DNA of 64,000 nt from a virus: IMG/VR virus record IMGVR_UViG_3300037483_000594, positions 96,001 to 160,000 of that record. One strand, given 5' to 3'. The stretch's first letter is position 1, and each line of letters begins with the position of its first letter. This document shows, piece by piece, positions 4,281 through 24,040 of the stretch. Both the position numbers and the translations under genes were made by a program. The notes under the pieces are model-generated. The model ran no database searches. It was not told where the DNA came from and worked only from the letters and a program-made list of their open reading frames with translations.

Positions 4281-7200
4281 ATGGCACGTCTCGACCCAGG
4301 GGAAACTTTTGAAGCGCTGAAGGGGGAGGTCACCAAGGCGATAAAGTCGCAGTTTCCGCAAGTGGGGTCGCAGCACGTTCTTGAGCTGCGCGATGTCGTG
4401 GTGGACGACAACGTCTCGTCGGACGAGGTTTCCACACAGGCCGCAGCGAAGCTAGACGGCAAAACGTTTGGTGTGCCCATAAAAGCGTCTTTGGTCCTCA
4501 GGGACAAGGCGTCCGGAAAGGTGCTCGACGAGCGTGTGCAACGGGTAGGCACCCTTCCGAAGATCACCAGCCGCTACTCTTGGATAGTCCGGGGCACAGA
4601 GTACCAGGTAGACAACCAGTTCAGGCTGCGCCCGGGCGTGTACACGACGGTCCACAAAGACGGAGGGCTCGAGAGCTTCTTGAACTTCGAGGGTATCCCC
4701 CTTCACATAAAGTTTGACCCCAAGTCCAAGAAGTTTGCGGTGAAACACAAGACCGCTTCTCCGCCTCTGTACCCTGTGATGCGTGCACTGGGGTTTTCGG
4801 ATGAACAGTTGCGGGATGCCTGGGGCAAGGAGATCTTGGCGGCGAACCAAGTGGACACCTCCGGGCGCCCTCTGCAGGTGGACAAACGGGCCATGGACTT
4901 CGCCCGAAAGCTCGTCCCTGCCGCAGAGGTGAACACGCTGGCCGAGGCTTCACGAGCCATTAAGACGTACCTCGGTGCCAAGACGTTGCACCCGGACGTG
5001 ACCGAGAAGACGTTGGGAGCTCGGTACGACACCATCACCCCCGACGTCTTTCGAGCCTCAACGGAGCGGCTGCTTGGGATAGCGCGCGGAGAGCAAAAAC
5101 CGGACACCCGTGACGCCCTGCACTTCAAGGAGCTGAACGGTGTCGAGGACCTGTTGTCAGAGCGGCTCGCGAAGAACGCCAAGATGAACGCGCGCCGGAT
5201 AGCCAACAACCTCGACAAGAAGACGGAGATTCGCCAGATCGTTGGGACGGGGCACTTTAACAGCCAGCTACACGGCTTTTTTGCCGACTCAACATTGGCG
5301 TCGCTGGCCCAGCAGACGAACCCCCTCCGCATGATCGATGGGCACACCCGCACCACCATCATGGGAGAGGGTGGGATCAAAAGCGCGAACGCCGTCACCG
5401 ATGAGGCAAAGCTTGTGGACCCCAGTCACTTTGGGGTGCTCGACCCCCTCGTGACTCCCGAGAGCGGGAAGGCCGGGGTCTCGTTGCAGCTCGCCATCGG
5501 CGCCAAGAAGGACGGAAAGACACTCGCCGTTCCCCTCATCAACGTGAAGACCGGGAAGGTCGAGTTCGTCAACACGGCCAAGGTAAACGACGTTGTGGTG
5601 GCCATGCCCGACGCCGTTACCTTCTCGCAAGGAAAGTTGGTGGCCAAGGACGGCGGGTCCACTGTCCGGGCGAGTGTCAAGGACAACGAGTTCCGGGAGG
5701 TCCCTCTCCGGGAAGTGCAGTACGTGGCCCCCAAGGCTACCCAGATGTTCTCCTTGTCGTCGAACTTGGTGCCGTTCCTGGCGTCGAACTCTCCGAACCG
5801 GGCTTCCATGAGCGGGAGGCACCAGGAGCAGGCGATCAGCTTGAAGTACCGGGAGCCCCCCCTGGTGCGCTCGGCCCTTGGGGACAAGAGCTTTGGGGAG
5901 ATCCTGGGGCAGTTCGCCGCGCAGCACTCTCCTGTCTCCGGAGAGGTGGTGGCTGTGGAGCCTGGGCTGATGAAGATCAAAGGCCCTGACGGAGTGAAAG
6001 AGGTACAGCTCTACAACCACTACCCGCTCAACGACAAGAAAGGCCAGTTGCACTCCACCCCCTCCGTGAAGGTAGGGGACAAGGTCAAGGCCGGGCAGCT
6101 CATCGCTGACACGAACTTCAGCGCTGACGGAATCTACGCCCCCGGGAAAAACCTGCAGGTTGCCTACCTACCATGGGGCGGCCAAAGTGTTAGCGGGGAT
6201 ACGTACGTTTATTGGGTTGACTCGCAGGGCGGGCACTTTGGACCAATCGGTAATATGCCGGCGCAGGGGGAAGTGTACGCCAACGTTCTGGATTCAGAAT
6301 CTGTAGAGGGCCGGTTGCATCGTGTTCACAGTTTTATAGGTCATTACACCGCCGAGCCTATGTTTGAAATCAAGATGTTAGAGCCGTTTCGAGTTAAAGC
6401 AACCGCATGTCACAGTTTTATTACAATTGATGAGACAGGGGGCTTTGTAAACATTACACCGGCCAAGATGATACCGCGAAAAACACTCTTGCCTGTTGTA
6501 CAGCCGACGTTGCGCTTCAGTAGTCAAATAGGGCAGATGTTTTGTAAATCAAAAACTGCTGGTGGTATTTCTGTGTCATTTCCTATGGATAAAGACGCGG
6601 GGTACGTTTTTGGTGTTTACACAGCAGAGGGGTGCTCCCTGGGAGGAACTAGGGGGTGTAAAGGACTTAGTATCTCGGTTACTGAGGGGGACCTATTAGA
6701 GCGATTAGAAAGTATTTTAGACAAGTGGGGTGTTAGCCATTCACGACGTTTGCGTGGGGTAAACATACACAATTCCGCAGTCGGCCGCATTGTTACAGAC
6801 GCCTGCGGCTGTCTTGCGCAATTTAAAAAGATACCCGACTTGCTGTGGTCTCAACATCCAGATTTTATTGATGGATTTTTGGACGGGTACTGGAGTGGCG
6901 ACGGTACTTGTTCTGATAAGCAGTTTACTGCGTCGACTGTATCTCGAGAACTGGCGGAGGGGTTGATATTTTTACTTGCGGCACGAGGAGTTAAGGCGCG
7001 GTACAGAACGTACAAGATCCCAGGACATCAAGACCAAAACCTGATAAATGTTTACAGAGAAACACTTGATAAATTTCCAGCACTGAGTTCTGGTCGAAAA
7101 GAACTTCTTCGACAGGAGTTAATAGCCAAGGGTACTGAGCACGGGCGGGATCGAATTCCTATCCCCGAGGCGTATCGCGACGAAGTAAAAAAAGCGCTGC

Positions 7201-10200
7201 GGAGCGTAGGAAGAGCGCTGGGGGGCAGCCCTTACGCTGCACGTCGTGTTTTGAAGCAAGTGCGAGAGCTACTGCCAGAAACGGTACGTCGGTTTGTTGA
7301 TGCTCCGATTTGGTGGGAAGTAGTTGACACGGTCAAGGAAGTGGAGCCGGAGGAGTACGTTTACGATTTGGATATGCGGCCGTTCGGCAATTTTATTGTG
7401 GGGCCCGGTCTTGTTGTACACAACACGTACGAAGACGGGGTGGTGATAAGCGAAGACGCAGCCCAAAAGTTGACGTCCACCCACCTGTACAAGAGCAAGC
7501 TCTCGACGCGTGACGCGCGCGTCGAGCCTGCCAAGCGGTACAAGAGCATCTTTGGGGCTACGATCCCGGCGGAGCGCATGGCAGGCTTGGGGGAAGACGG
7601 GGTAGTGCGGGAAGGGACGATGGTCAAGCCCGGAGATGTTCTCGTGGCGGGCTCTGCAGACCGCGTGTTCACTACCGAAGAGCAGAAGCTGCGTGCGATC
7701 CAGAAGTCCCTCGTGCCCACGAAGCGAAACGCTGCGGTGACGTGGGACGCCGAACACCCAGGGAAGGTCGTGGCCGTGCACCGCGGAAAGAGCGGGGTGG
7801 AGGTGCATGTCGAAACCGAGGAGCCTGCGCAGGTGGGTGACAAGATCAGCTCACACCACGCCGCCAAGGGCATCATCTCCGCGGTCTTGCCGTCTGCGGA
7901 GATGCCCCAGCGCCCGGACGGGAGCCCGATCGACATCGTCATGAACCCGGTTGGCACCGCCGGGCGTCTTAACGTTGGGCAGATCCTGGAAACCGCCGCG
8001 GCCAAGGTCGCGGAGAAGACCGGCAAGCCGTTCATCATCAAAAACTTCGAGACCGAGGATAACCACGGTCTCGTCGCAAAAGCACTGAAGGAGCACGGGC
8101 TCTCCGACACCGAGAACCTGATTGACCCCACCACGGGGAACACCATTCCGGGCATCCTTACGGGGCCGCAGTACATCATCAAGCTGGAGCACCAGGTCGA
8201 CAAGAAGATGAGCTCGAGGGACCGCGGTGCCTACGACCGAAACCTTATTCCGAAGGGCGGCGGGCACGACGGAGGGCAGGCCTTCGGAGCTCTGGGGACC
8301 TACGCACTCCTGAGCCACGGGGCGCGCGGAAAGATCCAGGAGGCGCAGACGCTGCTCTCGGACAAGGGGCAGGGTGGGCTGAACGACGAGTTGTGGGGTG
8401 CTATCCAGTCGGGGGAGCTTATCCCGCCTCCGAAAGCCACGTTTGCCACCAAGAAGTTCGAGGGCTACCTTCGCGGGCTCGGGGTCAACGTCGAGCAGGA
8501 CGGTAACCGGCTCTCGTTGATGCCTGTCACTGACGCGCAGACCCTGGCGCTCTCGAGCGGTGAGCTGCAAGACGCCGGGCGTACCGTGATCGTCAAGAAC
8601 AACCAGCTTGTTCCGGAGAAGGGCGGGCTCTTCGACAAGCGGGCCACTGGCGGGCTGGACGGTCAGAAGTGGGGGCATATCACCCTGGCGAAGCCCATGC
8701 CCAACCCGCTGTTCGAGTCCGGGATAAGGAGCCTCACGGGACTCAAGACCACCGAGTACCAGCAGCTCATCTCCGGAGAGCTTGGGGTAAGCCAGAGCGG
8801 GGCACTGGTCCCCGCGGACACGCGCGGGGCCGAGACAGGGCCCTCGGCTGTGGTGAAGCTCCTCGACAAAGTGGACGTGAAACGCGCACTGCAAGAGGAA
8901 GAAGGCCGCATCGGCGGTCTTCGTGGCCAAAAGCAGAATGAGGTTCGGAAGAAGATAAAGTACCTCAGGGCGCTGGACCGTCTGAAGCTTTCTCCAGCGG
9001 ATGCCTATACCACAAGGCACGTGCCTATTCTGCCGCCATCAATGCGCCCTGTGGCGCTTACCGAAGACGGGAAGCTGCAAAACGACGACCTGAACTACCT
9101 TTACCGCGATCTCGCGGTGCTCAATGACCAGGTGAAGAAGATCCCCGCGGACATGCCCAAGTCTTTGGTGCAAGACAAAGAGGCCTACCTGTACGACAGT
9201 CTCCGCGCCCTCACCGGGCTTGGGGGTACGGTCAACGACAAGTACCCCGGGCTCCTTCACCGGATAGCTGGAAAGACCTCTCCCAAACAGGGGTTCTTCC
9301 AGAACGTGCTGATGAAGCGTAAGCAGGACCTCTCGGGGCGCTCGACTATCATCCCGGACCCCACCTTGTCCTTGGACGAGGTAGGGCTTCCCATCGACAT
9401 GGCGCGCGTCATCTACAAGCCCTTTGTGGTTCGGGAGATGAAAAACTCGCTTGGGCTCAGCCCCCTGGCCGCAAAGAAGCTGATCGACGAGGACGACCCG
9501 CTTGCCCGGAAGGCGCTCGAGCGCGTTGTTTCCGAACGCCCTATCATGCTCAAGCGGGACCCCGCCCTGCACAAACACAGCGTGCAGGGGTTCAAGCCCA
9601 AACTGATTAAAGGGAGCGCCATCAAAATCCCACCGCTGGTCACCAGTGGCTTCAACGCCGATTTTGACGGTGACCAGTGCATCGGTGCTGTTGTTTTGTT
9701 CCTTGAAAGAGATGTATTCAATTATGATATATGCTATTGGACACCAAGGAGGATTACTTTGACAGCGCGGATGCGAGAGCAGATTGGTTATTGTGATGCG
9801 GACGGAGAGTTTGTTGTCTGTGACCTATCGGAAGTGCCCCACGCGGAGGAGTGTGTAACGAAGGGGCACATTGACTATCATCCTGTGTCGGGGGTTAGCG
9901 TGCTCACTCTTGACCCGACGAAGGGGGCATGTTTCGCGGAGGTGACGGGGTGGTCTTATCATCGGCAACGCTCGGTGGAGATAGTCACTCTTGCTAGCGG
10001 GCGGCAGATCGTTACAGACGATGACCCAAGGGCTGTGTTTGGCGTGGATGCTTCGTCGTTGGAGTGGTGTCGGCGTCGTCCGCGTGAGAGTGCAGACCAG
10101 TTTGTGCCTGTTTTGGACGAAGTTCCTGCGTCCTTTACCGAGTTGACAGCGCTCGCGCTACCAAGAGACAAGTCCGGGCGGATGAAGCCAGAGGTGCTTC

Positions 10201-13200
10201 TTGACGCTAAGTTTGGTTACTTTCTGGGTTGTTTGGTGGGGGACGGCTGGGTCACGGGTGATGAGACACTGCGGTTCACATGTATGGCCAGCAGCTTTCC
10301 GGAGGTGCTTGGTACGTGGGAGCGGTCTGCGTCATGCCTTTTCTCAGAGAATCCGCACTTCAGCGAGCAGTACTGCTGTGAGGGGACCTTCGAGAACTCA
10401 AAGGGGACTACGCGCGCAACTATTTCTTCGGTAGCGTTGGCTACGTTTCTGCAGCCACTTATCGGTCATGGCGCGCGCAATAAGCACCTCCCTCCGTTTT
10501 TCTTGTCGGCCCCTGAATCTTTCCGTGTTGGTCTTTTGGCTGGGTTGATGGACACAGACGGCTCGATGTCATGGTCGATGGCAAAAGGCAAGGCGCAGTT
10601 TATGTGCAGTGTTAGCTCCACCAGCATAAGGCTGCTACAGGAAACTCAGCATCTTCTCCGCACGCTTGGAATCACCGCGAGTATCACCACTACCACCACG
10701 CCAAAGGGAGCTGCGTCATGGGTGCTGTCTATCTCTTCTGTGGGGTTGTACGAGCACAGGCGTAAACTTGCTCGACCGGCGCACAGTGGGAAACGCGCTG
10801 TGTGGGAGGAGTTCTGTGCTGGGGACGGCCCGGCTTCCGGAGGTGCTTTTTCACGGTACCGGCTCGTACCGCTACCTTCCAAGCTTGCTGCCAGCCTGCG
10901 GAAGATTGTCACGGTGAACGAGGACCGCAGCGTGTACATGACGCTGTCCAAGGCGATCGATCGGCAGTACATGTCGAAGCTGCTGGCCGAAAAGACTGTT
11001 CGGATGGTGAACGAACGTGGAGGGTGTGCACACCCCTTCTACGCGCGCTGGGCACGGCTGGTCGAAACTCCTGGGATGCACTTTGAGCGTGTTGTGGACG
11101 TGCAGCAGACGAACATTCTAGAGGACGGGTATGACCTAACCGTCCCGGGCTACGAGACCTTTATGGCAGTAGACGGCGTTGTGCTGTCCAACACAATGTC
11201 GGCTTACGTGCCGGTGACCGAAAAGGCTGTTCAGGAAGCGTGGCAGATGATGCCGTCGAACAACCTGTTCAGCCCGGCTTCCGGGAAGCTGATGTACGCA
11301 CCCACCAACGAGATGCAGGTAGGGCTGTACATGGCCACCGAGGTCGGGAAGGACACGGACAAGAAGTTTGCTTCCCTCTCGGAGCTGCGACGGGCAGTGA
11401 ACTCCGGAAAGCTCCACGGGACCGATGTGGTCACGTTGAACGGGCAGCGCACCACCTTCCACCGCGCGGAACTCGTAGACGCACTTCCGGAGCAGGCGCG
11501 GGAGGGGAACAAGCACCTCCTCACGGACCTTGGGTACAGGCTGACCAAGGCCAAGCAAGGCGCGCTGTTCGAGTCGATGGCGCACTCTGGGGCCGACGGC
11601 AAAGAGTTCGGGGCGGCGATAAACGCCGTCAAGGACCTTGGGAACAAGGTGGTGAGCACAGGGGGCTTCTCGTTCGGGCTCAAAGACATCGCTCCTCAGA
11701 AGGCGCTGCGGGCCGCAGCCTTTGCCGATGCGGACAAGGCTGTCGCACAACTGCGTGGTGTCGAACGTGAGGAGAAGATCGTCGACCTCTACTCCAAGGC
11801 GACCACCGCGCTCGAGAAGGACGTGCAGCAGATGGCGCAAGAACGCGCGTCTGAGTCTGCACTGGCCAAGCTGCAGGTAGCTGCCGGGATCAAGGGGAAC
11901 GGTTACAGGCAGCTCGTGGCGGCCCCCGGGCTCTTCGTGGACGGGCTAGGGAGGGTAGTGCCCTCTCCGGTCAAGCGCTCTTACGCGGAGGGGCTGAAGA
12001 GCAGCGACTACTACGTCAGCACCTCTGGGGCGCGGAAGGGCATAATCCAGAAGGTACAGAGCGTGCGCGACCCAGGGTACCTCACCAAGCTCATGGTGAA
12101 CTCCACCATTTCCGAGATGGTGGACAGGGAGGACTGCGGCACCCATTACGGTATCTCCCTGTCCGTGGACGAACCGGATGTGCAAGGGCGCTTCACGGTG
12201 GTTGACCACAAGCTCAGCAACGGCTCGGTCATCCCCGCCGGCACCTTGCTCGACAGCTCTATTGTGACCCGGATACGCAACGACAAGCCCGGGGCCAAAC
12301 TGGTGGTGCGTTCTCCCATGCGATGCACTCACACCACTGGGCTCTGCGCAAAGTGCGCCGGGCTGCAGGCGGACGGGAAGCTTCCGGAAAAGGGCACCAA
12401 CATTGGTATCTTGGCTGCCCAGGCCCTTGGAGAACGTGGAACACAGCTAGCTCTGAAGTCCTTTCACTGTTCGCACGCCAAGACGTTGGTGGTCGTCTGC
12501 AGGCGGGATGACCAAACAGTCAGGGCTATGACACTCGAGGAACTCTACGAGAAGGCGGTCAACCCTGTGGCGGAGGGTTGGCTGATCTACGACGGGGCGT
12601 GGCAGGAGCTCTCCGCGGTGAGCAGGCACCGCCCAACCGACCGTATGATGTTTGTGAGCTGCTCCAGTGTGGCGACGGTCTGCCAGGACAATCATCCCCT
12701 GGCGACCTACGAAAACAGGGTTTCTTGCGAGAAGTGTGGTTACCACCGGCTGAAGAAACCAGGGGCGAACGCTTCCATAAAAAACGGCAAGTTGTACTGC
12801 CCAAAGTGCTTTACCTACCAATACCCTATGGTCCCGGCGGAGGGGGAGGTGAAGTTCCTTGCACCTCAAGAGGTGGAGTGCAAGCGTGTGTACTTGCAGC
12901 GCTGTCTCGACCTCCCGGTTTCTTGTGTTAGAAAAACACCGTGGCTTGATCCGTACCTCGCTGGTATGTACGTGGCAGAGGGGAGTCTGGGGTATGTAGC
13001 AACTGCCTCGGGGGTGAAGAAACCGTACTTCGTCACTATCAGTCAGAACCGCGGGGCCGTGCGCGACAAACTGGAGCAGAAGCTGCCCCCTGAGTGGTGT
13101 GCCAAGCTTGGGGGGCGTGGCGTTGTGATTAACAGAGTCGCGCTCGGTGAGCGACTTGAAACAACGTTCGGCCGCTACTCGCGAAACGTGGCGCTGCCCT

Positions 13201-14387
13201 CCGACTTCCTAGCCTACGAACAGGGGTGGCTCGCCGAGTTCTTGTGTGGGCTGATCGATGGGGACGGGACGATCAAGCCTGACAAGGACGGGGCGCAGCG
13301 TATCGCGATCGACACGACAAGTTTTGCGCTGGCGCAACAGGTCGTGTTTATCTGTTCTCTGTTGAACATCGTGCCTTCTGTCCTGGCTACGTCACACCGA
13401 AAGCTGACCAGACATCAGGGTTTCCGTGTTGTGCTGCGGGTGACAGCGGCAGTGAAAGACTTGTTGAAAGAATCCATAAAGGTCCAGAGTGTGGAGAAAC
13501 TGAGCCCGGACCAGGACTTTCAGAGAACAGGGCGCACGCTGCTCTCGACCAAAAAAGAGGTGTTGTACACAGACGAGTACGTCTACGACGTCACGACCTC
13601 TTCCGGTACGTTTCTCGCGGGTGGGGTGCTCAGTCACAACAGCGGGGGTGTTTACTCCCCTACGGACATGACCTCTTTGGCTGGGAGCGGGATCGAGAGA
13701 GCCATGACGCTCCTTCAGCTTCCGAAGACGGTGAAGGGCTCGGCCACCCTTTCCACGGTCGGGGGTGTGGTGCGAAAGGTCGAGAGGGACGCTGCCGGCG
13801 GGGTCAACATTTTTGTGGACGACGGAAAGGGCCTGCGAAAGCACTACGTGCCCGCGGGTCGCAAGCTCCTGGGCTCGGTTGGAGGGAAGGTGCGCCCCGG
13901 AGACCCCCTTTCTTCAGGGCCGGTGAACCCGCACGACCTGTTGCCGCTTGCCGGGGTAGCACGCACCCAGGGGTTCCTGGCAAACGAGCTGCACAGCATC
14001 TACGGGAAAGAGGGCGTCAGGCGTCGGCACTCCGAGGTTCTGGTGAGGGCTGTGAGCTCGGTGGCGAGGGTAGAGGACCCCGGAGATCACGCGACTCTTC
14101 TTCCGGGGGACTACGTGGACACGAACGCCACGGCGCAGTGGAACGACAAGCACAGGGGCAAGGCGCCTGTGCAGTACACTCCCGTGGTGCGTGGAGTCGA
14201 GCAGCTTCCGCTTGACGTGAGCGAGGACTGGTTGGCCCGCCTGAACCATGAGCGCGGAAGAAAGACCATTATCGAGGCTGCGCAACAAAACTGGTCCACG
14301 GACCTGCACGGTCGGCACCCTATTCCCGGACTTATCTATGGTGTAGAATTCGGAAAAGGAACGAAAGACAAACCCTGGCACTACTAG
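4281..14387 (+). CDS. fused beta-beta' DNA-directed RNA polymerase precursor with three inteins (~2058 aa spliced)
   Basis: Beta motifs (QFRLRPGVY, QTNPL, PSHFG..DP..TPES, YEDGVVIS, GDK..HHAAKG, GGQAFG) followed by beta' motifs (WGHITL, PILPPSMRP, RDPALHK, NADFDGD, GARKG, GYLT, RSPMRC..CAKC, GERGTQL..FH). Confidence 0.95.
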   Translation: MARLDPGETFEALKGEVTKAIKSQFPQVGSQHVLELRDVVVDDNVSSDEVSTQAAAKLDGKTFGVPIKASLVLRDKASGKVLDERVQRVGTLPKITSRYSWIVRGTEYQVDNQFRLRPGVYTTVHKDGGLESFLNFEGIPLHIKFDPKSKKFAVKHKTASPPLYPVMRALGFSDEQLRDAWGKEILAANQVDTSGRPLQVDKRAMDFARKLVPAAEVNTLAEASRAIKTYLGAKTLHPDVTEKTLGARYDTITPDVFRASTERLLGIARGEQKPDTRDALHFKELNGVEDLLSERLAKNAKMNARRIANNLDKKTEIRQIVGTGHFNSQLHGFFADSTLASLAQQTNPLRMIDGHTRTTIMGEGGIKSANAVTDEAKLVDPSHFGVLDPLVTPESGKAGVSLQLAIGAKKDGKTLAVPLINVKTGKVEFVNTAKVNDVVVAMPDAVTFSQGKLVAKDGGSTVRASVKDNEFREVPLREVQYVAPKATQMFSLSSNLVPFLASNSPNRASMSGRHQEQAISLKYREPPLVRSALGDKSFGEILGQFAAQHSPVSGEVVAVEPGLMKIKGPDGVKEVQLYNHYPLNDKKGQLHSTPSVKVGDKVKAGQLIADTNFSADGIYAPGKNLQVAYLPWGGQSVSGDTYVYWVDSQGGHFGPIGNMPAQGEVYANVLDSESVEGRLHRVHSFIGHYTAEPMFEIKMLEPFRVKATACHSFITIDETGGFVNITPAKMIPRKTLLPVVQPTLRFSSQIGQMFCKSKTAGGISVSFPMDKDAGYVFGVYTAEGCSLGGTRGCKGLSISVTEGDLLERLESILDKWGVSHSRRLRGVNIHNSAVGRIVTDACGCLAQFKKIPDLLWSQHPDFIDGFLDGYWSGDGTCSDKQFTASTVSRELAEGLIFLLAARGVKARYRTYKIPGHQDQNLINVYRETLDKFPALSSGRKELLRQELIAKGTEHGRDRIPIPEAYRDEVKKALRSVGRALGGSPYAARRVLKQVRELLPETVRRFVDAPIWWEVVDTVKEVEPEEYVYDLDMRPFGNFIVGPGLVVHNTYEDGVVISEDAAQKLTSTHLYKSKLSTRDARVEPAKRYKSIFGATIPAERMAGLGEDGVVREGTMVKPGDVLVAGSADRVFTTEEQKLRAIQKSLVPTKRNAAVTWDAEHPGKVVAVHRGKSGVEVHVETEEPAQVGDKISSHHAAKGIISAVLPSAEMPQRPDGSPIDIVMNPVGTAGRLNVGQILETAAAKVAEKTGKPFIIKNFETEDNHGLVAKALKEHGLSDTENLIDPTTGNTIPGILTGPQYIIKLEHQVDKKMSSRDRGAYDRNLIPKGGGHDGGQAFGALGTYALLSHGARGKIQEAQTLLSDKGQGGLNDELWGAIQSGELIPPPKATFATKKFEGYLRGLGVNVEQDGNRLSLMPVTDAQTLALSSGELQDAGRTVIVKNNQLVPEKGGLFDKRATGGLDGQKWGHITLAKPMPNPLFESGIRSLTGLKTTEYQQLISGELGVSQSGALVPADTRGAETGPSAVVKLLDKVDVKRALQEEEGRIGGLRGQKQNEVRKKIKYLRALDRLKLSPADAYTTRHVPILPPSMRPVALTEDGKLQNDDLNYLYRDLAVLNDQVKKIPADMPKSLVQDKEAYLYDSLRALTGLGGTVNDKYPGLLHRIAGKTSPKQGFFQNVLMKRKQDLSGRSTIIPDPTLSLDEVGLPIDMARVIYKPFVVREMKNSLGLSPLAAKKLIDEDDPLARKALERVVSERPIMLKRDPALHKHSVQGFKPKLIKGSAIKIPPLVTSGFNADFDGDQCIGAVVLFLERDVFNYDICYWTPRRITLTARMREQIGYCDADGEFVVCDLSEVPHAEECVTKGHIDYHPVSGVSVLTLDPTKGACFAEVTGWSYHRQRSVEIVTLASGRQIVTDDDPRAVFGVDASSLEWCRRRPRESADQFVPVLDEVPASFTELTALALPRDKSGRMKPEVLLDAKFGYFLGCLVGDGWVTGDETLRFTCMASSFPEVLGTWERSASCLFSENPHFSEQYCCEGTFENSKGTTRATISSVALATFLQPLIGHGARNKHLPPFFLSAPESFRVGLLAGLMDTDGSMSWSMAKGKAQFMCSVSSTSIRLLQETQHLLRTLGITASITTTTTPKGAASWVLSISSVGLYEHRRKLARPAHSGKRAVWEEFCAGDGPASGGAFSRYRLVPLPSKLAASLRKIVTVNEDRSVYMTLSKAIDRQYMSKLLAEKTVRMVNERGGCAHPFYARWARLVETPGMHFERVVDVQQTNILEDGYDLTVPGYETFMAVDGVVLSNTMSAYVPVTEKAVQEAWQMMPSNNLFSPASGKLMYAPTNEMQVGLYMATEVGKDTDKKFASLSELRRAVNSGKLHGTDVVTLNGQRTTFHRAELVDALPEQAREGNKHLLTDLGYRLTKAKQGALFESMAHSGADGKEFGAAINAVKDLGNKVVSTGGFSFGLKDIAPQKALRAAAFADADKAVAQLRGVEREEKIVDLYSKATTALEKDVQQMAQERASESALAKLQVAAGIKGNGYRQLVAAPGLFVDGLGRVVPSPVKRSYAEGLKSSDYYVSTSGARKGIIQKVQSVRDPGYLTKLMVNSTISEMVDREDCGTHYGISLSVDEPDVQGRFTVVDHKLSNGSVIPAGTLLDSSIVTRIRNDKPGAKLVVRSPMRCTHTTGLCAKCAGLQADGKLPEKGTNIGILAAQALGERGTQLALKSFHCSHAKTLVVVCRRDDQTVRAMTLEELYEKAVNPVAEGWLIYDGAWQELSAVSRHRPTDRMMFVSCSSVATVCQDNHPLATYENRVSCEKCGYHRLKKPGANASIKNGKLYCPKCFTYQYPMVPAEGEVKFLAPQEVECKRVYLQRCLDLPVSCVRKTPWLDPYLAGMYVAEGSLGYVATASGVKKPYFVTISQNRGAVRDKLEQKLPPEWCAKLGGRGVVINRVALGERLETTFGRYSRNVALPSDFLAYEQGWLAEFLCGLIDGDGTIKPDKDGAQRIAIDTTSFALAQQVVFICSLLNIVPSVLATSHRKLTRHQGFRVVLRVTAAVKDLLKESIKVQSVEKLSPDQDFQRTGRTLLSTKKEVLYTDEYVYDVTTSSGTFLAGGVLSHNSGGVYSPTDMTSLAGSGIERAMTLLQLPKTVKGSATLSTVGGVVRKVERDAAGGVNIFVDDGKGLRKHYVPAGRKLLGSVGGKVRPGDPLSSGPVNPHDLLPLAGVARTQGFLANELHSIYGKEGVRRRHSEVLVRAVSSVARVEDPGDHATLLPGDYVDTNATAQWNDKHRGKAPVQYTPVVRGVEQLPLDVSEDWLARLNHERGRKTIIEAAQQNWSTDLHGRHPIPGLIYGVEFGKGTKDKPWHY
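6186..7424 (+). mobile_element. intein 1 with LAGLIDADG endonuclease (413 aa)
   Basis: PWGGQ|SVSGDT...TACH...GVYTAEG...FLDGYWSGDG...VYDL...VVHN|TYEDG; AT-richer than flanks. Confidence 0.92.
9675..11192 (+). mobile_element. intein 2 with LAGLIDADG endonuclease (atypical, ~506 aa)
   Basis: NADFDGD|QCIGAV...FLGCLVGDG...LLAGLMDTDG...GYDLTVPGYETF...VLSN|TMSAYVP. Confidence 0.88.
12468..13640 (+). mobile_element. intein 3 with LAGLIDADG endonuclease and Zn-finger insert (391 aa)
   Basis: TQLALKSFH|CSHAKT...LAGMYVAEG...LCGLIDGDG...VYDVTT...SHN|SGG. Confidence 0.92.
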
Positions 14388-19760: not shown

Positions 19761-19975
19761 TGCCATTCGTCTCGGAGAGTCAGCGCCGAAAGTTCTACGC
19801 CATGAAAGAGCGCGGAGAGGTCAGCGCAAAGGTCGTCAAGGAGTTCGAGAAGGGCTCCCCGGAGGACCTCCCGGAACGTGTGAAGACCGCTGCCTACTGC
19901 GAAGCCTACGGGCTCGAGCTGCTCAAGGGGGCAGCCCCCCGCTGGAAACAGCTTCTCCGTGGCAAGGAGATCTGA
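19757..19975 (+). CDS. small basic phage protein
   Basis: AAGGAGG RBS; MPFVSESQRRKFYAM..RGE..LPERVKTAA. Confidence 0.65.
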   Translation: MMPFVSESQRRKFYAMKERGEVSAKVVKEFEKGSPEDLPERVKTAAYCEAYGLELLKGAAPRWKQLLRGKEI

Positions 19976-20499
19976 TGCGCGCGCTTCTGGTGCAGGGGGG
20001 AGCACTCGCTGACACGCTCCTGAAGCTTGCGGAGAAGCCTCTCCGTGAGCGCGTAGAGGTGTACGCTCTCAAAGACGGAAAGGTCCTGGCCGGCATCTAT
20101 CCGGACGGGTCAGTGGGTGTGCCTGGGGGAGGGGTGTCCTCCGGGGAGTCCCCCGAGCACGCGGCAAAGCGGGAGTACAAGGAAGAGGCAGGCCTGACCG
20201 TCAAGAACCTGCAGCCCCTTCCCGTGCCCCCACTTGTTGAAAAGTGGGAGAAGCGGAAGGACCTCACCGACAAGGAGAAGGAGCGGCGCAAGGAGTTCTC
20301 CGGGTCGCGCACTCACTTCTACATAGCCGACCTTTCCGGAAAAGGCGGGAAGGCGGTGGACCCCTCCGCGTTGAAGAGGCTCGTTCCGCGTTCGGTAGCG
20401 GCTCTTGTCGACAAGCTGCAAGAGCAAGCCGACTCCGGGAAGAAGCGGGACAAGGTACGCCTCAAGGTACTCGAGACTGTCCAGGAGTTAACCAGCTAA
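19975..20499 (+). CDS. Nudix hydrolase
   Basis: Complete Nudix box GGGVSSGESPEHAAKREYKEEAGL. Confidence 0.9.
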   Translation: MRALLVQGGALADTLLKLAEKPLRERVEVYALKDGKVLAGIYPDGSVGVPGGGVSSGESPEHAAKREYKEEAGLTVKNLQPLPVPPLVEKWEKRKDLTDKEKERRKEFSGSRTHFYIADLSGKGGKAVDPSALKRLVPRSVAALVDKLQEQADSGKKRDKVRLKVLETVQELTS

Positions 20500-20523
20500 A
20501 AAAGTGGGGGTTGCCCCCCACCG
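20494..20523 (-). terminator. intrinsic terminator
   Basis: GTGGGGG-GCAA-CCCCCAC-TTTTTTAGCT on the minus strand. Confidence 0.75.
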
Positions 20524-20529
20524 TGGCCG

Positions 20530-20760
20530 CTACTGCGGCCGAACCTCCTCCTCGCCGACGATGGTAGCGGTTCCGGTGCGGTCAAACCGCACCGTGGGGA
20601 TGCCGTCGTCGACTCCCTCGACGACGCCCACGTCCCCCGGTTCCGCGTGGATGTACGCGCCCTGGGGGAACTGGGCGTTGGGGTCTCCGGGGAGGCGACC
20701 GTTCTCGGTCACCTGCGCGGTGGCCATCAATCGCTGGCCCTTCTCAAACGGGTACGTCAT
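20530..20760 (-). CDS. small hypothetical protein (SH3-like beta fold possible)
   Basis: AAAGGAAAGG RBS; MTYPFEKGQRLMATAQV...GDVGVVEGVDDGIPTVRF. Confidence 0.6.
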   Translation of the reverse strand: MTYPFEKGQRLMATAQVTENGRLPGDPNAQFPQGAYIHAEPGDVGVVEGVDDGIPTVRFDRTGTATIVGEEEVRPQ

Positions 20761-20772
20761 GCCTTTCCTTTC

Positions 20773-20803
20773 TAGCAAAAAGTGATGGGAGTTTCCCACC
20801 ACT
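20773..20803 (-). terminator. intrinsic terminator after the tRNA-like element
   Basis: AGTGGTGGG-AAAC-TCCCATCACT-TTTTGCTA. Confidence 0.6.
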
Positions 20804-20805
20804 AG

Positions 20806-20874
20806 AGCCGAGACCTGGGCTTGCACCAGGATCTCCTCCTCAACGGAGGCGGGTTACCTTAACCCCATCTCGGC
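20806..20874 (-). ncRNA. tRNA-like cloverleaf with a 5-nt anticodon loop
   Basis: GCCGAGA/TCTCGGC acceptor; D arm GGGT-TAAGGTA-ACCC; CCTCC-GTTGA-GGAGG; T arm CCTGG-TGCAAGC-CCAGG; no encoded CCA. Confidence 0.7.
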
Positions 20875-20904
20875 GGTGGGTGCAGCGCTGGGCGCTGCGC
20901 CCCT

Positions 20905-21222
20905 CTAGTACTTGGACAGAACCTGCCCCACGGTCCAGCGGGGGTCGTGGGACACGGCGACTACGTACCCCTGGCACTTGGGGTCGTAGATCGCCGTTGC
21001 GCCGAACCGGTGCACCAAGAAGTGCACCAGTACGGCGCAGACAGGGAGGCTCATGGGCCCGCTTATGCGGACCAAGCCCCCGCCGATCTCGAGACCCTTC
21101 AAGGTCTCGTTCTCGAGCTCCGCCACGATCTGGGCGTTCGTGGCGGTCTCCCCGAAACCCACCGTCAGGTCGGTTACCTGATCGGTGGAGTGCGGCTCCC
21201 GCCGCACATGGAAAAGTGACAT
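20905..21222 (-). CDS. csx3: Csx3 (Crn3)-like cyclic oligoadenylate ring nuclease
   Basis: 105 aa; VGFGE..GGGLVRISGPMSLPVCAVLVHFLVHRF..IYDPK..GYVVAVSHDP.W.VG matches the Csx3 pattern; AAGGAGGTG RBS. Confidence 0.8.
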   Translation of the reverse strand: MSLFHVRREPHSTDQVTDLTVGFGETATNAQIVAELENETLKGLEIGGGLVRISGPMSLPVCAVLVHFLVHRFGATAIYDPKCQGYVVAVSHDPRWTVGQVLSKY

Positions 21223-21233
21223 TGTCACCTCCT

Positions 21234-21289
21234 TGGCGCAGGTGAGGGGGAGTCGAACCCCCTGACGCCGAAGCGTCTCCAACACCTGC
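21234..21289 (-). ncRNA. mini tRNA-like element (56 nt)
   Basis: GCAGGTG/CACCTGC + G + CCA; canonical T arm GGGGG-TTCGACT-CCCCC; a single GACGC-TTCG-GCGTC hairpin replaces the D and anticodon arms. Confidence 0.7.
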
Positions 21290-21486
21290 CCCAGGGTCAC
21301 GCCTTACCTGGATGGCGCTTCACTTTTTGTTTCCATCCAGAGTGTGAAGTCTCTGGACCGGGCTACTGCTCCACCAAAGAGAGGGCCGGGACAAAGGGCG
21401 CCGCTTCGCGCCGATTCGGACACCTCCTGCGGACCATGCGCTGCCCGTACCACGCAGAAGGCTGCGAGGGTTTCTTTGTACTCAGA

Positions 21487-21606
21487 TCAGCGCTTCCGCG
21501 CTGAGCGGAAGAACCCATAGGGGTCCTTCCCGGTTACGCCCTCGATCACGATGGCGAGAAGAACGCACACAGCCACAAGGGCGATGATGAGGAACAATGT
21601 TGTCAC
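21487..21606 (-). CDS. 39-aa single-pass membrane peptide
   Basis: GGAGGTG RBS, GTG start; MTTLFLIIALVAVCVLLAIVIEGVTGKDPYGFFRSARKR. Confidence 0.6.
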   Translation of the reverse strand: MTTLFLIIALVAVCVLLAIVIEGVTGKDPYGFFRSARKR

Positions 21607-21619
21607 GCTACACCTCCAG

Positions 21620-21690
21620 TGCCCCTGGCAGGAATCGAACCTGCTCCTCCTGGGTGTAAACCAGGCGCTCGTCCTTCGAGCTACAGGGGC
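21620..21690 (-). tRNA. tRNA-Val(TAC)
   Basis: GCCCCTG/CAGGGGC acceptor, GCTC/GAGC D stem, CCTGG-TTTACAC-CCAGG, GCAGG-TTCGATT-CCTGC, discriminator A; CCA not encoded. Confidence 0.9.
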
Positions 21691-21717
21691 GGAGTAGGAC
21701 AGGGGGTGTCCTACATA

Positions 21718-21728
21718 TTCTTATAACA
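21718..21728 (-). promoter_or_regulatory. candidate promoter TGTTATAAGAA
   Basis: About 27 nt upstream of tRNA-Val; TTGATA lies 18 nt upstream of TATAAG. Confidence 0.6.
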
Positions 21729-21732
21729 GAAG

Positions 21733-22146
21733 TCACTGAAATGTATCAACAATCTCCTTGTTGTGTTGGTAGATGGTATCCAGCAGGGCGTCGTACCGTT
21801 GGAGAAGGGCGCTGTCCCACGTGGTGATGAAGAAGCCCACCTCTCCGCCCGGGAAGGACACCCTGTACTCTCCGTCACAGTAGGCAGCGCAGCGAACGGG
21901 CTCGAGGGCCTCCCAGGCCTTCTCGAGCAGCGCCTCGGGCTCTGGGCCCACAAGGCGCTCGAGGGAGGGAAGGTTGTTGTCAACCACCCGTTGGAGCAGC
22001 CGGCCCACCTGCCGCATCGCCACGGCCTCTTCGAGGCTGATCTCTACCGGGGCTGCCCCCGGCAGCCGCAGGCTGACCTCGTAGACCCCTCGGGCCACTC
22101 CACCCCACCTCGGAGGGTCCATCAGTTTCCGGATAAGGGCTTTCAT
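21733..22146 (-). CDS. hypothetical protein
   Basis: GGAGG RBS, preceded by TGTTATAAGAA. Confidence 0.65.
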   Translation of the reverse strand: MKALIRKLMDPPRWGGVARGVYEVSLRLPGAAPVEISLEEAVAMRQVGRLLQRVVDNNLPSLERLVGPEPEALLEKAWEALEPVRCAAYCDGEYRVSFPGGEVGFFITTWDSALLQRYDALLDTIYQHNKEIVDTFQ

Positions 22147-22165
22147 CTCTAACCTCCATTGCGCC

Positions 22166-22176
22166 TTCTTATAACA
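22166..22176 (-). promoter_or_regulatory. candidate promoter TGTTATAAGAA
   Basis: Same 11-mer as at 21718; divergent from terL. Confidence 0.6.
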
Positions 22177-22243
22177 GCGGCTTTTTCTTATGTTCCAAGC
22201 GTCTGTGTTGATTAGCTTTTTCGGTTTGTGCTAGGTTAGGGTA

Positions 22244-24040
22244 ATGGACGACCTTTACAAGCGCGCGCAGGACAGTGTCAGCACCGGGTTGTCGGACGAA
22301 GAGACCGAGGCCTTGCTGGACGCGGAGATGGAAGAGGAGGAGCAGGACAGGTACGACGCTCTTCTGGAGGGGGAGGTGGCGGTGGGGAAGGCCCCGGTGG
22401 TACCGGTGTCGCTGAGCAAGTACACCGAGTTCAGTGTGCGGATAAACACCGGGTACGACATCGAACCTTTCTCGTTCAAAGGCAGGGAGCACTTCCGGAA
22501 GGTGTACGACACACCTGACAAGGACGTCCTAGTGCTAGCCAGTCGGCAGTCGGAGAAGTCGACGTTCCTGGGGAACAAGATCTTGGCGTTGTCGGCTATC
22601 ATCCCCGGGTTTCAGACGCTGTACGTTTCTTCTTCGGCAACGCAGTCCAAGGTCTTCTCGGAAGACCGGATACGCGAGCCTATCCTGAACTCTCCGCGAC
22701 TCCAGCAGAGTGTTGACCCGCGTGCCCAGAGTGTTTTTTCCAAGAGGTTTCGTAACAGCTCCATGATCAGGTTGCGCTACGCCTACCTGACAGCGGACCG
22801 AGCTCGTGGTGTGAAGTCAGACGGGATCTTTATCGACGAGATTCAGCACATCTTGCCGTCCAACATCCCTATTATCGAGCAGTGTGCGTTCCACTCGATT
22901 CACAAGTACCGCACGTACTCCGGGACCCCGTTGACCCTCGACAACACCATCGCTGTCCTGTGGGACTCCCACTCCACGCAGAACGAGTGGATCGTCCCCT
23001 GCCGGGCCTGTGGCCAGGAGAAGAAGCGGGACACCTGGTGGTGGAACGTCCTGGGTCCCGGGAACATCGGCAAGGAAGGACTGGTGTGCGAGCACTGTCA
23101 CCGTCCCATCAACGTGCGCGACCCCGATGCTCAGTGGGCGTCGATGCAGCCGGTGAACGCGGACAACGCTCTGCGGGTCAACTTCCGCGGTTTCCGGATT
23201 ACGCAGTTCATGGTCCCGTCGCTGAACTGGCGGAAAGACATCCTGGAGAAGAGGGAGGAGTACTCCACAGCGCAGTTCAACAACGAGGTGTGTGGGCTGA
23301 GCTACGACTCCGGGAGCCGGCCTATTTCCAAGCAGCAGCTTATCCGCGCCTCACGTGCGGACGTGGACATGTCCGAGATCGAGAAGAACGTGGCCCGGTG
23401 CACCGGAGGGGTGTTCGCTGGGGTCGACTGGGGCCAGGACACGGAGAACTCCTTTACCGTGCTCACCCTGGGCGGGTACATGACCCACGGCTTCCAGATC
23501 TTTTTTGCCCACCGGTTCGTGGGGGCCGACTGTGACCCCGATGTCCAGCGCGAGAAGGTTGCCAAGCTGCTGGGCGCCGTCCACTTCCGGGTGTGCGGAG
23601 CGGACTACGGCGGCGGCTTCGGGCGTAACGACTGGCTGATGCGCAAGTTCGGAATGAAAAAGTTTGTGCGGTTTCAGTACGCCCCCAACCCCGTGCGGAA
23701 GATCGTGTGGAACCCCAAGCTCCTGCGGTTTGTGCTCCACCGCTCGGAGGTGATGGGCGACTTTTTTAGCGCCTTAAAGGAGCATAGGATCAGCCTTCCG
23801 AACTGGAAACAGTTTTCCGAACCACACGGCCGGGACATCCGCAACATCTTCACTGAGTTCAACACCCAGCGCCTTCTCATGCAGTACAAGCACACCCATG
23901 GCAAAACCGACGACACCTTCCACTCCATCATCTACTGCGTCCTGGGGAGCATGCTCGTGAAACCCCGCCCTGACATCCTGATCCCCCTCAAGGAAGGGAA
24001 CGTCAGCTTTGACCGTGGCGGCCTAGACCTCGCTGCCTAG
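22244..24040 (+). CDS. terL: terminase large subunit
   Basis: Walker A variant ASRQSEKST, Walker B GIFIDEIQ, YSGTP coupling motif, CxxC..CxxC, nuclease GVDWG and DDTFHS. Confidence 0.9.
   Translation: MDDLYKRAQDSVSTGLSDEETEALLDAEMEEEEQDRYDALLEGEVAVGKAPVVPVSLSKYTEFSVRINTGYDIEPFSFKGREHFRKVYDTPDKDVLVLASRQSEKSTFLGNKILALSAIIPGFQTLYVSSSATQSKVFSEDRIREPILNSPRLQQSVDPRAQSVFSKRFRNSSMIRLRYAYLTADRARGVKSDGIFIDEIQHILPSNIPIIEQCAFHSIHKYRTYSGTPLTLDNTIAVLWDSHSTQNEWIVPCRACGQEKKRDTWWWNVLGPGNIGKEGLVCEHCHRPINVRDPDAQWASMQPVNADNALRVNFRGFRITQFMVPSLNWRKDILEKREEYSTAQFNNEVCGLSYDSGSRPISKQQLIRASRADVDMSEIEKNVARCTGGVFAGVDWGQDTENSFTVLTLGGYMTHGFQIFFAHRFVGADCDPDVQREKVAKLLGAVHFRVCGADYGGGFGRNDWLMRKFGMKKFVRFQYAPNPVRKIVWNPKLLRFVLHRSEVMGDFFSALKEHRISLPNWKQFSEPHGRDIRNIFTEFNTQRLLMQYKHTHGKTDDTFHSIIYCVLGSMLVKPRPDILIPLKEGNVSFDRGGLDLAA

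Follow-up and report, generated by a model that had tools for sequence, protein, structure and literature searches.

Why should tRNA-type folds alternate with small genes in a phage, one of them coding for a relative of a CRISPR-associated ring nuclease? This question is raised by a 1.7-kb leftward island (20497-22198, minus strand) in the IMG/VR virus record IMGVR_UViG_3300037483_000594, a genome of 170,135 bp with an estimated completeness of 94% and a G+C content of ~62%. We analyzed its bases 96001-160000, a stretch of 64,000 nucleotides (nt) that we call the window. An earlier note on this DNA had proposed that the transcript of the island is cut at the tRNA-type folds into single-gene messages, and had seen in the island a counter-defence unit that would combine RNA and protein. 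Our preferred reading, which we hold with about even confidence, is that of an early accessory operon that carries a ring nuclease directed against type III CRISPR and is cut at tRNA-type signals. Promoter use, cleavage, hydrolysis of cyclic tetra-adenylate (cA4) and the anti-CRISPR effect are inferred; for cleavage, we infer from what RNase P and 3'-processing enzymes accept.

Coordinates are those of the window plus strand, and the features of the island are read on the minus strand. In the direction of transcription, with open reading frames (ORFs) and ribosome-binding sites (RBSs) indicated, they are:

22168-22198 (-): promoter-like site P1; TTGGAA, 19-nt spacer, extended -10 TGTTATAAG, inside the 12-mer CTGTTATAAGAA
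21733-22146 (-): ORF137, 137 amino acids (aa), GGAGG 6 nt before the ATG; no family
21720-21749 (-): promoter-like site P2; TTGATA, 18-nt spacer, TGTTATAAG; overlaps the end of ORF137
21694-21714 (-): 8-bp hairpin, 3 nt before the tRNA-Val; its inverted repeat is also in the terminator scan, reported on the plus strand
21620-21690 (-): tRNA-Val(UAC), canonical, with A73 and no encoded CCA; RF00005 64.2 bits, ARAGORN agrees
21487-21606 (-): hydrophobic ORF of 39 aa, candidate membrane peptide; GTG start, RBS GGAGGTG at 21617-21611
21290-21486 (-): 197-nt spacer with local hairpins; overall structure not significant, no Rfam match
21234-21289 (-): anticodon-less mini-tRNA, 56 nt; acceptor stem 21289-21283/21244-21238, UUCG hairpin 21277-21264, T arm 21263-21245
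20905-21222 (-): csx3/crn3 homologue, 105 aa; PF09620 match of 31.1 bits (cut-off 21, E 2.2e-7)
20882-20898 (-): 7-bp hairpin rich in G+C, after the csx3 stop and before the cloverleaf; may protect the 3' end of processed csx3 mRNA
20807-20874 (-): anticodon-defective cloverleaf; 5-nt anticodon loop GUUGA, D arm with GG loop, no CCA
20776-20803 (-): T1, terminator-like hairpin (20803-20781) and T run, 3 nt after the cloverleaf
20530-20760 (-): ORF76, 76 aa, small beta-barrel with a NifZ/NdhO-like shape
20497-20522 (-): T2, terminator-like hairpin (20522-20503) and T run, between the island and a Nudix gene

The order of elements put forward in the earlier note was borne out by our reading of the sequence together with ARAGORN, Rfam, the ORF list and a promoter/terminator scan, except for its "structured spacer" (21486-21290), which folds no differently from shuffles (z -0.07 and +0.35). 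The alternation of tRNA-type folds with ORFs holds as well. The folds are real, and two of them end at the very edge of the next RBS: the GGAGGTG of the 39-aa ORF begins 3 nt past the tRNA-Val discriminator, and 0 nt separate the CCA of the mini-tRNA from the csx3 RBS.

Three tRNA-type folds at gene boundaries

The tRNA-Val, with a fold z of -4.2, is the only tRNA that ARAGORN detects genome-wide, and the only one of the three folds that has the full cloverleaf, the 7-nt anticodon loop and the above-cut-off score of a canonical tRNA. Its matching codon GUA makes up 12% of the valine codons of the phage, a share that speaks neither for nor against a codon-supplementing role of the tRNA.

The mini-tRNA is built of a 7-bp acceptor stem, a 5-bp UUCG hairpin and a 6-bp T stem with the loop UUCGACU, all of them Watson-Crick paired, and its 3' end carries G73 (21237) followed by an encoded CCA (21236-21234). 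This CCA abuts AGGAGGTG, the csx3 RBS, after which comes the csx3 ATG at 21222. The fold has a z of -2.6 and is matched by the Rfam tRNA-Sec model at 28.5 bits (E 0.009), in an alignment that treats it as a class II or Sec-type tRNA minus ~35 nt. In a strict scan, the full mini-tRNA pattern occurs once in the genome, against ~0.1 chance matches per 413 kb. For the strict T-arm pattern, the two strands of the genome together yield three matches where 0.75 are expected, and two of these belong to the island.

The cloverleaf has stems of 7+4+5+5 bp, Watson-Crick and free of mismatches, and a T loop (UGCAAGC) one base off the consensus. Its fold z is -3.3, and none of 200 shuffles equals it. A scan for four-stem tRNA geometry returns the tRNA-Val and this cloverleaf as its only matches in the genome, and nothing in 10 shuffled genomes. 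ARAGORN detects the cloverleaf at relaxed settings only; at default settings it calls neither this fold nor the mini-tRNA, and the Rfam tRNA model does not call them either. The tRNA-like folds are thus far beyond chance.

Two other identities were considered and rejected. The mini-tRNA is not the tRNA-like domain of a transfer-messenger RNA (tmRNA): it has A3-U70 and G73 instead of G3:U70 and A73, it lacks an analogue of the tmRNA D loop, and ARAGORN finds no tmRNA in the window or the genome. A self-cleaving ribozyme was also dismissed, with no Rfam match in the island at E values up to 10 and none window-wide up to 0.05.

A Csx3/Crn3 family member encoded by a phage

The assignment of the 105-aa protein to the Csx3/Crn3 family, made in the earlier note, is sound. 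Beyond the above-cut-off Pfam match, an exhaustive HMMER search recovered 226 homologues, mostly of ~100 aa and aligned over their full length, and a profile built from 50 of these matches chains of the Archaeoglobus fulgidus protein (AfCsx3) at E ~1.5e-5. In AfCsx3, residues H57, H60, D69, R71 and H80 are needed for cA4 cleavage (PMC7371418). Four of these, H57, H60, D69 and H80, align with H67, H71, D80 and H92 of the window protein, which are nearly invariant in its branch. The AlphaFold model of the protein (pLDDT 95.5, pTM 0.86) retrieves AfCsx3 with all of its top 10 Foldseek matches (TM-score 0.63-0.77, probability 1.00), and superposes on 6YUD, the complex of AfCsx3 with cA4, with a TM-score of 0.72-0.75.

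The window protein therefore resembles Crn3/Csx3 of A. fulgidus (AF_1864; PDB 3WZG/3WZI/6YUD/6VJG; PF09620) in fold, approximate size and these four residues, and it would be expected to share its chemistry, a Mn-dependent cleavage of cA4 by head-to-tail dimers. It differs in sequence (~20-24% identity), in an N-terminal FG-x-PA-x-N motif conserved in its branch, and in being encoded by a phage: neither the ORF map nor the record data show cas genes near csx3 in the window, and the gene does not lie in a type III CRISPR-Cas locus. The homologue most likely cleaves cA4, which would weaken the signalling of type III CRISPR and make the protein an anti-CRISPR comparable in effect to AcrIII-1. Because the csx3 call is sound, the protein half of the counter-defence role suggested in the earlier note appears reasonable with respect to type III CRISPR.

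The job proposed here for Csx3 is that of AcrIII-1 (DUF1874), a ring nuclease anti-CRISPR that is likewise small and viral and removes cA4 to disarm type III CRISPR effectors (PMC12409355). However, it has an unrelated fold and belongs to an unrelated family, and it is metal-independent whereas Csx3 depends on Mn (PMC7371418). A 2025 survey of 28,114 phage genomes found AcrIII-1, Csx20 and Csx16 as the only ring nucleases; Crn3 was searched for and was absent (PMC12409355). We found no report of a phage-encoded Crn3 in the literature searched.

The closest Csx3 relatives occur in phage-like contexts, for instance next to SSB, HNH-AP2 and NADAR genes, next to the gene of a CCA-adding enzyme, or on IMG/VR contigs of 74-155 kb. 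Cas10 stands beside some Csx3 relatives (5 of 95 neighbouring ORFs scanned). The gene for the CCA-adding enzyme (PolyA_pol, HD, tRNA_NucTran2_2) is found at L007:3471-4799 (+), with the second-closest Csx3 homologue following ~1.2 kb downstream; no tRNA was detected on this contig.

A model of tRNA punctuation

RNase P needs little beyond a stacked acceptor stem and T arm, and acceptor/T-arm minihelices are among its substrates. It is also well known that tRNAs lying within longer transcripts get excised (see also PMC2190699 and PMC1920247). In a bacterial host, an RNA-based RNase P would be expected. On these grounds we propose the following course of events. The island would be transcribed leftward, probably early, from the two host-type extended -10 promoters P1 and P2. 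Host RNase P would cleave 5' of the folds, with one cut at 21690 and, very probably, two more at 21289 and 20874. On the 3' side, the tRNA-Val, which is CCA-less, would undergo an RNase Z-type cut, and the mini-tRNA, which bears a CCA, would be trimmed by an endonuclease together with exonucleases. The ORF137 message would then end in the hairpin at 21714-21694 and the csx3 message in the hairpin at 20898-20882, while the message of the 39-aa ORF would begin at its RBS (21617) and that of csx3 at 21233. Small tRNA-like RNAs would be released as by-products. Alternatively, at csx3, the mini-tRNA may stay attached as a 5' stabiliser.

This arrangement recalls the t-elements of plant mitochondria and the mitochondrial model of tRNA punctuation, in which tRNAs or tRNA-like folds between coding regions are described as making mRNA ends via RNase P and 3' processing (PMC1920247). 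Like t-elements, the folds of the window are tRNA-like structures at the boundaries of coding regions, with hairpins upstream of them and RBSs downstream. Unlike them, they belong to a bacteriophage, and they include a "top-half" mini-tRNA with an encoded CCA. Our search of the literature returned no report of tRNA-type punctuation in phages.

A second likeness is with the pair formed by MALAT1 and mascRNA, in which a cut by RNase P makes the 3' end of the upstream RNA and frees a small tRNA-like RNA. There, a tRNA-like fold follows a stabilising 3' structure, an order also found in the csx3-hairpin-cloverleaf arrangement of the window and in the succession of csx3, a long hairpin and a mini-tRNA on another phage contig (L011, below). 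The MALAT1-mascRNA system is, however, eukaryotic and nuclear, and has no homology to the window.

tRNA-like elements in other csx3 phages

Five IMG/VR contigs encode relatives of Csx3; they have no terL (large terminase gene) like that of the window, and csx3 alone is common among them. In three of the five, an anticodon-less tRNA-like element lies on the csx3 strand, 27-510 nt from the gene. In L011 it is found 27 nt after the csx3 stop, behind a long hairpin; in L012 a mini-tRNA lies ~510 nt downstream of csx3; and in L013 the element, ~150 nt downstream, has a D arm and an encoded ACCA and gives a weak match to the mascRNA model (19.3 bits). The four csx3-linked minis differ in register, with a T stem of 6 bp or of 5 bp. 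ARAGORN finds no tRNA gene in the mini-tRNA phages; a single Rfam match, in phage G002, exceeds the tRNA cut-off.

L012, from a 136-kb phage, shows the order csx3, Pistol ribozyme, 121-aa ORF, mini-tRNA (4753-4799) and, 21 nt on, a 143-aa ORF. The ribozyme (RF02679, L012:4298-4362, plus strand) scores 62.5 bits against a cut-off of 34.5 and lies ~40 nt after the csx3 stop. On L013, ~3 kb from csx3, there is also a Twister-P1-like sequence (7316-7367, plus strand) whose 39.9 bits fall below the cut-off of 67.2.

Whole-record scans revealed a family of mini-tRNAs of ~47 nt, in each of which an acceptor stem is combined with a 4-bp stub hairpin and a T arm GCCCG/CGGGC, with two copies in phage G001 and four in phage G003. 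All six lie on the minus strand:

L103:774-822 (-): ~47-nt family copy
L103:9075-9123 (-): ~47-nt family copy
L113:776-822 (-): ~47-nt family copy
L113:2100-2146 (-): ~47-nt family copy
L120:12627-12674 (-): ~47-nt family copy
L120:13173-13220 (-): ~47-nt family copy

A hairpin precedes most copies (at least four of the six, from their flanks), and an RBS-like stretch with a start codon follows within ~60 nt in three of the six. We tabulated the base pairs of these G001 and G003 copies by script. The stub hairpin varies in a compensatory manner, with the versions CUGG/CCAG, CCAG/CUGG, CCAU/AUGG and AUGG/CCAU; likewise, acceptor pair 7 is C-G or U-A and T-stem pair 4 is C-G or A-U. In this family, which is analogous to the mini-tRNA of the window, the compensatory changes are direct evidence of selection on such folds, at gene boundaries. 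The recurrence of the layout hairpin, mini-tRNA, RBS and ORF in unrelated phages, in one of which the Pistol ribozyme occupies a comparable place between genes, fits punctuation of the transcript. Because mini-tRNAs occur in the operons of other phages away from csx3, the RNA elements look like a general operon device rather than a specific partner of Csx3. Particular to the window are the fusion of the CCA to the RBS, a full cloverleaf that is non-decoding, and a cargo gene, flanked by the folds, that may encode an anti-CRISPR.

We also noted two further elements near csx3 homologues. In phage G001, an ORF with a SAVED domain (PF18145, E 3e-7) at L011:2215-2706 (+), ~1.3 kb upstream of csx3, may be a second counter-defence gene directed at cyclic oligonucleotides, for which the viral SAVED ring nuclease offers a comparison (PMC12751052). 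In L044, at approximately 1741-1818 (+) and ~1 kb downstream of a csx3 homologue, lies a 78-nt element with a tmRNA-like 5' end, G3:U70, a canonical T arm and an encoded CCA; having no message part, it resembles a "TLD-only" (tRNA-like domain-only) tmRNA.

The island in related phages

The long ORFs run rightward almost throughout according to the ORF map, and the island stands out as a leftward block. It is flanked by a rightward Nudix gene (19975-20499) and by the rightward terL (22244-24040, GpA_ATPase). The genes on both sides of this slot are kept in terL relatives of 45-60% identity, but its contents are not: L002, the closest relative, is empty at this place, and L003, L004 and L008 hold unrelated leftward ORFs. 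The slots compared are 20500-22243 in the window, L002:3315-3384, L003:4863-5922, L004:4536-5920 and L008:6393-7896. From these comparisons, the slot directly upstream of terL is a hotspot of gene turnover in this phage group. The island is therefore an insertion specific to its lineage, at a hypervariable place that has the virion-gene block on one side and terL on the other.

Synteny in relatives, to which the earlier note had looked for support, was not found at this place: the slot of the terL relatives holds other ORFs or none, and no tRNA, even at relaxed settings. Comparison of the island with phage records by blastn gave matches at the tRNA level only; a word-index protein search with Csx3 returned only the query itself; scans of IMG/VR with Csx3, with TerL and with the Csx3 proteins of L012 and L013 brought nothing new; and an exact 25-mer of the mini-tRNA had no match in IMG/VR.

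Concerning the neighbouring genes, the Nudix hydrolase gene is convergent with the island. Among PHROGs it is best matched by a "portal protein" family, in a segment that is Nudix-like; weak matches in NCBIfam include RNA pyrophosphohydrolases. Further upstream in the window, a single ORF of 3368 aa (4281-14387, plus strand) presumably codes for a giant virion or injected protein.

Alternative explanations

Several observations weigh against an operon cut at tRNA-type signals with a ring nuclease as its cargo. Phage-like csx3 loci exist without a tRNA-like element (L005/L006, L007, L014 and L015), and across 88 csx3 loci, many of them cellular, a search with a relaxed T loop gave 0.039 against 0.027 matches per kb, that is, no excess. 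None of the terL relatives examined has a homologue of the island at the slot. The encoded CCA of the mini-tRNA is an anti-determinant for RNase Z, and the 3' cut by the csx3 RBS therefore needs another nuclease; in addition, a cut so close could damage the RBS. T1 follows the cloverleaf within 3 nt, so that a processing site there looks partly redundant. As for the protein, K82, nearly invariant in the branch, replaces R71, described as "absolutely conserved" in AfCsx3, and the NCBIfam equivalog TIGR02579 is matched at 24.1, below its cut-off of 55.4.

With the strict T-arm pattern, by our own count, four of 10 matches lie within ~0.65 kb on the csx3 strand, and three others are ordinary tRNAs. 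We gave up the notion of mini-tRNAs as partners specific to csx3, there being no enrichment over the 88 loci and copies being present elsewhere in whole records.

A different history, which we regard as unlikely, would make the island what is left of a phage tRNA cluster, with one tRNA still functional, the mini-tRNA and the cloverleaf turned into pseudogenes by an internal deletion or a damaged loop, any processing incidental, and csx3 having landed among them. Large phages often carry tRNA clusters with small ORFs in between, and decay could account for the Rfam reading of the mini-tRNA as a class II or Sec-type tRNA with ~35 nt deleted, for the GG D loop and near-consensus T loop that the cloverleaf retains, and for an island unique to this phage in a hypervariable slot. 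However, neutral decay should erode pairing, and every stem is mismatch-free, in the mini-tRNA (7+5+6 bp) as in the cloverleaf (7+4+5+5 bp). The same architecture of acceptor stem, stub hairpin and T arm recurs in phages without any tRNA gene called by ARAGORN, one multi-copy family of mini-tRNAs is maintained by compensatory changes, and the folds are positioned so as to abut RBSs, all of which argues against decay.

It is rather improbable, in our view, that the mini-tRNA or the cloverleaf, or both, work as small RNAs, that is, as mimics that would titrate a host factor in trans. The target might be an enzyme or toxin that reads the acceptor or CCA end, SmpB, or Cas10-Csm or its accessory RNases, and the island would then be a combined RNA and protein unit, as the earlier note had it. 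There are precedents of two kinds. AcrIIIA1 of the staphylococcal phage Twillingate acts as a protein-RNA complex whose RNA part, fragments of tRNA and tmRNA, reaches Cas10-Csm and RNase R. This ties small RNAs of tRNA origin to the inhibition of type III CRISPR, although the fragments come from host tRNA and tmRNA and the protein is unrelated to Csx3 (PMC11662646). The "TLD-only" tmRNA of mycobacteriophage DS6A, suggested to titrate SmpB, is like the mini-tRNA a phage-encoded RNA of acceptor and T arm without an anticodon arm (PMC4131195); the mini-tRNA differs from it in its A3-U70 and G73 and in the missing tmRNA D-loop analogue. The mini-tRNA also offers an encoded G73-CCA, a 13-bp stack of acceptor and T stems, a hairpin at the place of a long extra arm and a best match to the tRNA-Sec model, and co-location with csx3 is seen in three other phages. 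On the other side, the minis of G001 and G003 are multi-copy, far from csx3 and next to unrelated ORFs, which a generic device acting in cis fits better; the mini-tRNA of the window has neither G3:U70 nor A73, hence is not a tmRNA-like alanine acceptor; and beyond co-location the sequence lends trans action no support. Because neither of the two tRNA-like folds has a normal anticodon loop, they would be poor decoys for anticodon nucleases. Still less credible to us, and very improbable, is the specific version in which the mini-tRNA is released as a mimic, possibly serylatable or presenting its CCA end, that works with Csx3 against type III CRISPR; it could occupy Cas10-Csm or its accessory RNases, much like the fragments bound by AcrIIIA1, or sequester a defence toxin directed at the acceptor ends of tRNAs.

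Rather improbable, too, in our view, is that the folds are protectors left attached to the message, the mini-tRNA as a cap-like structure at the 5' end of the csx3 mRNA and the cloverleaf as a structure at its 3' end. Together they would slow both 5'-end-dependent and 3'-exonucleolytic decay of an anti-defence mRNA needed early. In favour of this, the joining of the CCA to the RBS leaves no spacer for a clean 3' cut, an encoded CCA blocks RNase Z, and the hairpin, cloverleaf and terminator form a triple 3' structure. But a canonical T loop and exact tRNA geometry are unnecessary for simple protection, and in L012 the corresponding slot is taken by a Pistol ribozyme, which speaks for cleavage as the function under selection.

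Finally, that the tRNA-like pieces are attachment-site (att) scars left by insertion of a cassette into tRNA genes is scarcely believable: the slot is a gene-exchange hotspot and tRNA 3' ends are common att sites, but no integrase lies near the island on the ORF map or in family scans of its neighbours, and we rejected this reading on the ground that such scars retain no more of a tRNA than its 3' part, while in the island each stem has its two strands, perfectly paired.

Significance

If the folds of the island are processing signals, phages would use the tRNA-maturation enzymes of their hosts to split multi-gene messages into single-gene pieces, a punctuation device known from mitochondria. 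Many of the "orphan" tRNA-like sequences and pseudo-tRNAs of phages would then find an explanation, and compact, host-independent parts would become available for operon design. If Csx3 of the window cleaves cA4, a further family would be added to the ring nucleases reported in phages, which to date comprise AcrIII-1 and a viral SAVED protein, both shown to be active, and homologues of Csx16 and Csx20, which a small number of phage genomes encode. Such cleavage would further imply that the host depends on cA4-based type III CRISPR signalling. At 1.7 kb, the island fits one test construct.

Promoters, terminators and small ORFs

Two promoters had been claimed for the island, and P1 and P2 are plausible in this role. 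Both contain the 12-mer CTGTTATAAGAA with its extended -10, identical in the two sites, which are its sole perfect copies in the 170-kb genome; on the other hand, a generic sigma-70 scan calls a promoter at neither. The shorter pattern TGnTATAA[GT] has nine copies in the genome where shuffles give 3.65; several of these copies (five of nine by reading of the flanks) stand 15-35 nt ahead of an RBS and start codon. This set may represent candidate early promoters of the phage. Sites include those starting at 40717, 51033 and 62252 of the window (plus strand) and, in genome numbering, 4938, 17036, 40717, 43810 and 68847. Both terminators claimed earlier, T1 and T2, are called by the promoter/terminator scan.

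The small ORFs have few or no relatives. ORF137 has no match in Pfam, PHROG or NCBIfam, no structural match above a TM-score of 0.5 in the Atlas, and no homologue in related loci. The 39-aa candidate ORF has no family in these three collections, its Pfam match being sub-threshold only. The same searches gave no family for ORF76, whose structural match to a NifZ cluster of the Atlas (TM-score 0.73) is a lead only; lacking a promoter of its own, it would require read-through of T1 for expression.

On the contig of the closest Csx3 homologue (L005:5940-6560, plus strand), a motif AAAGGGGATCG[T/C]G... precedes csx3, a 40-aa ORF and the next gene. From our reading of this stretch, the repeated motif is probably a phage promoter, and two of the three genes follow a terminator-like hairpin. 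The 40-aa ORF, which comes after csx3, is hydrophobic and echoes the 39-aa ORF of the window.

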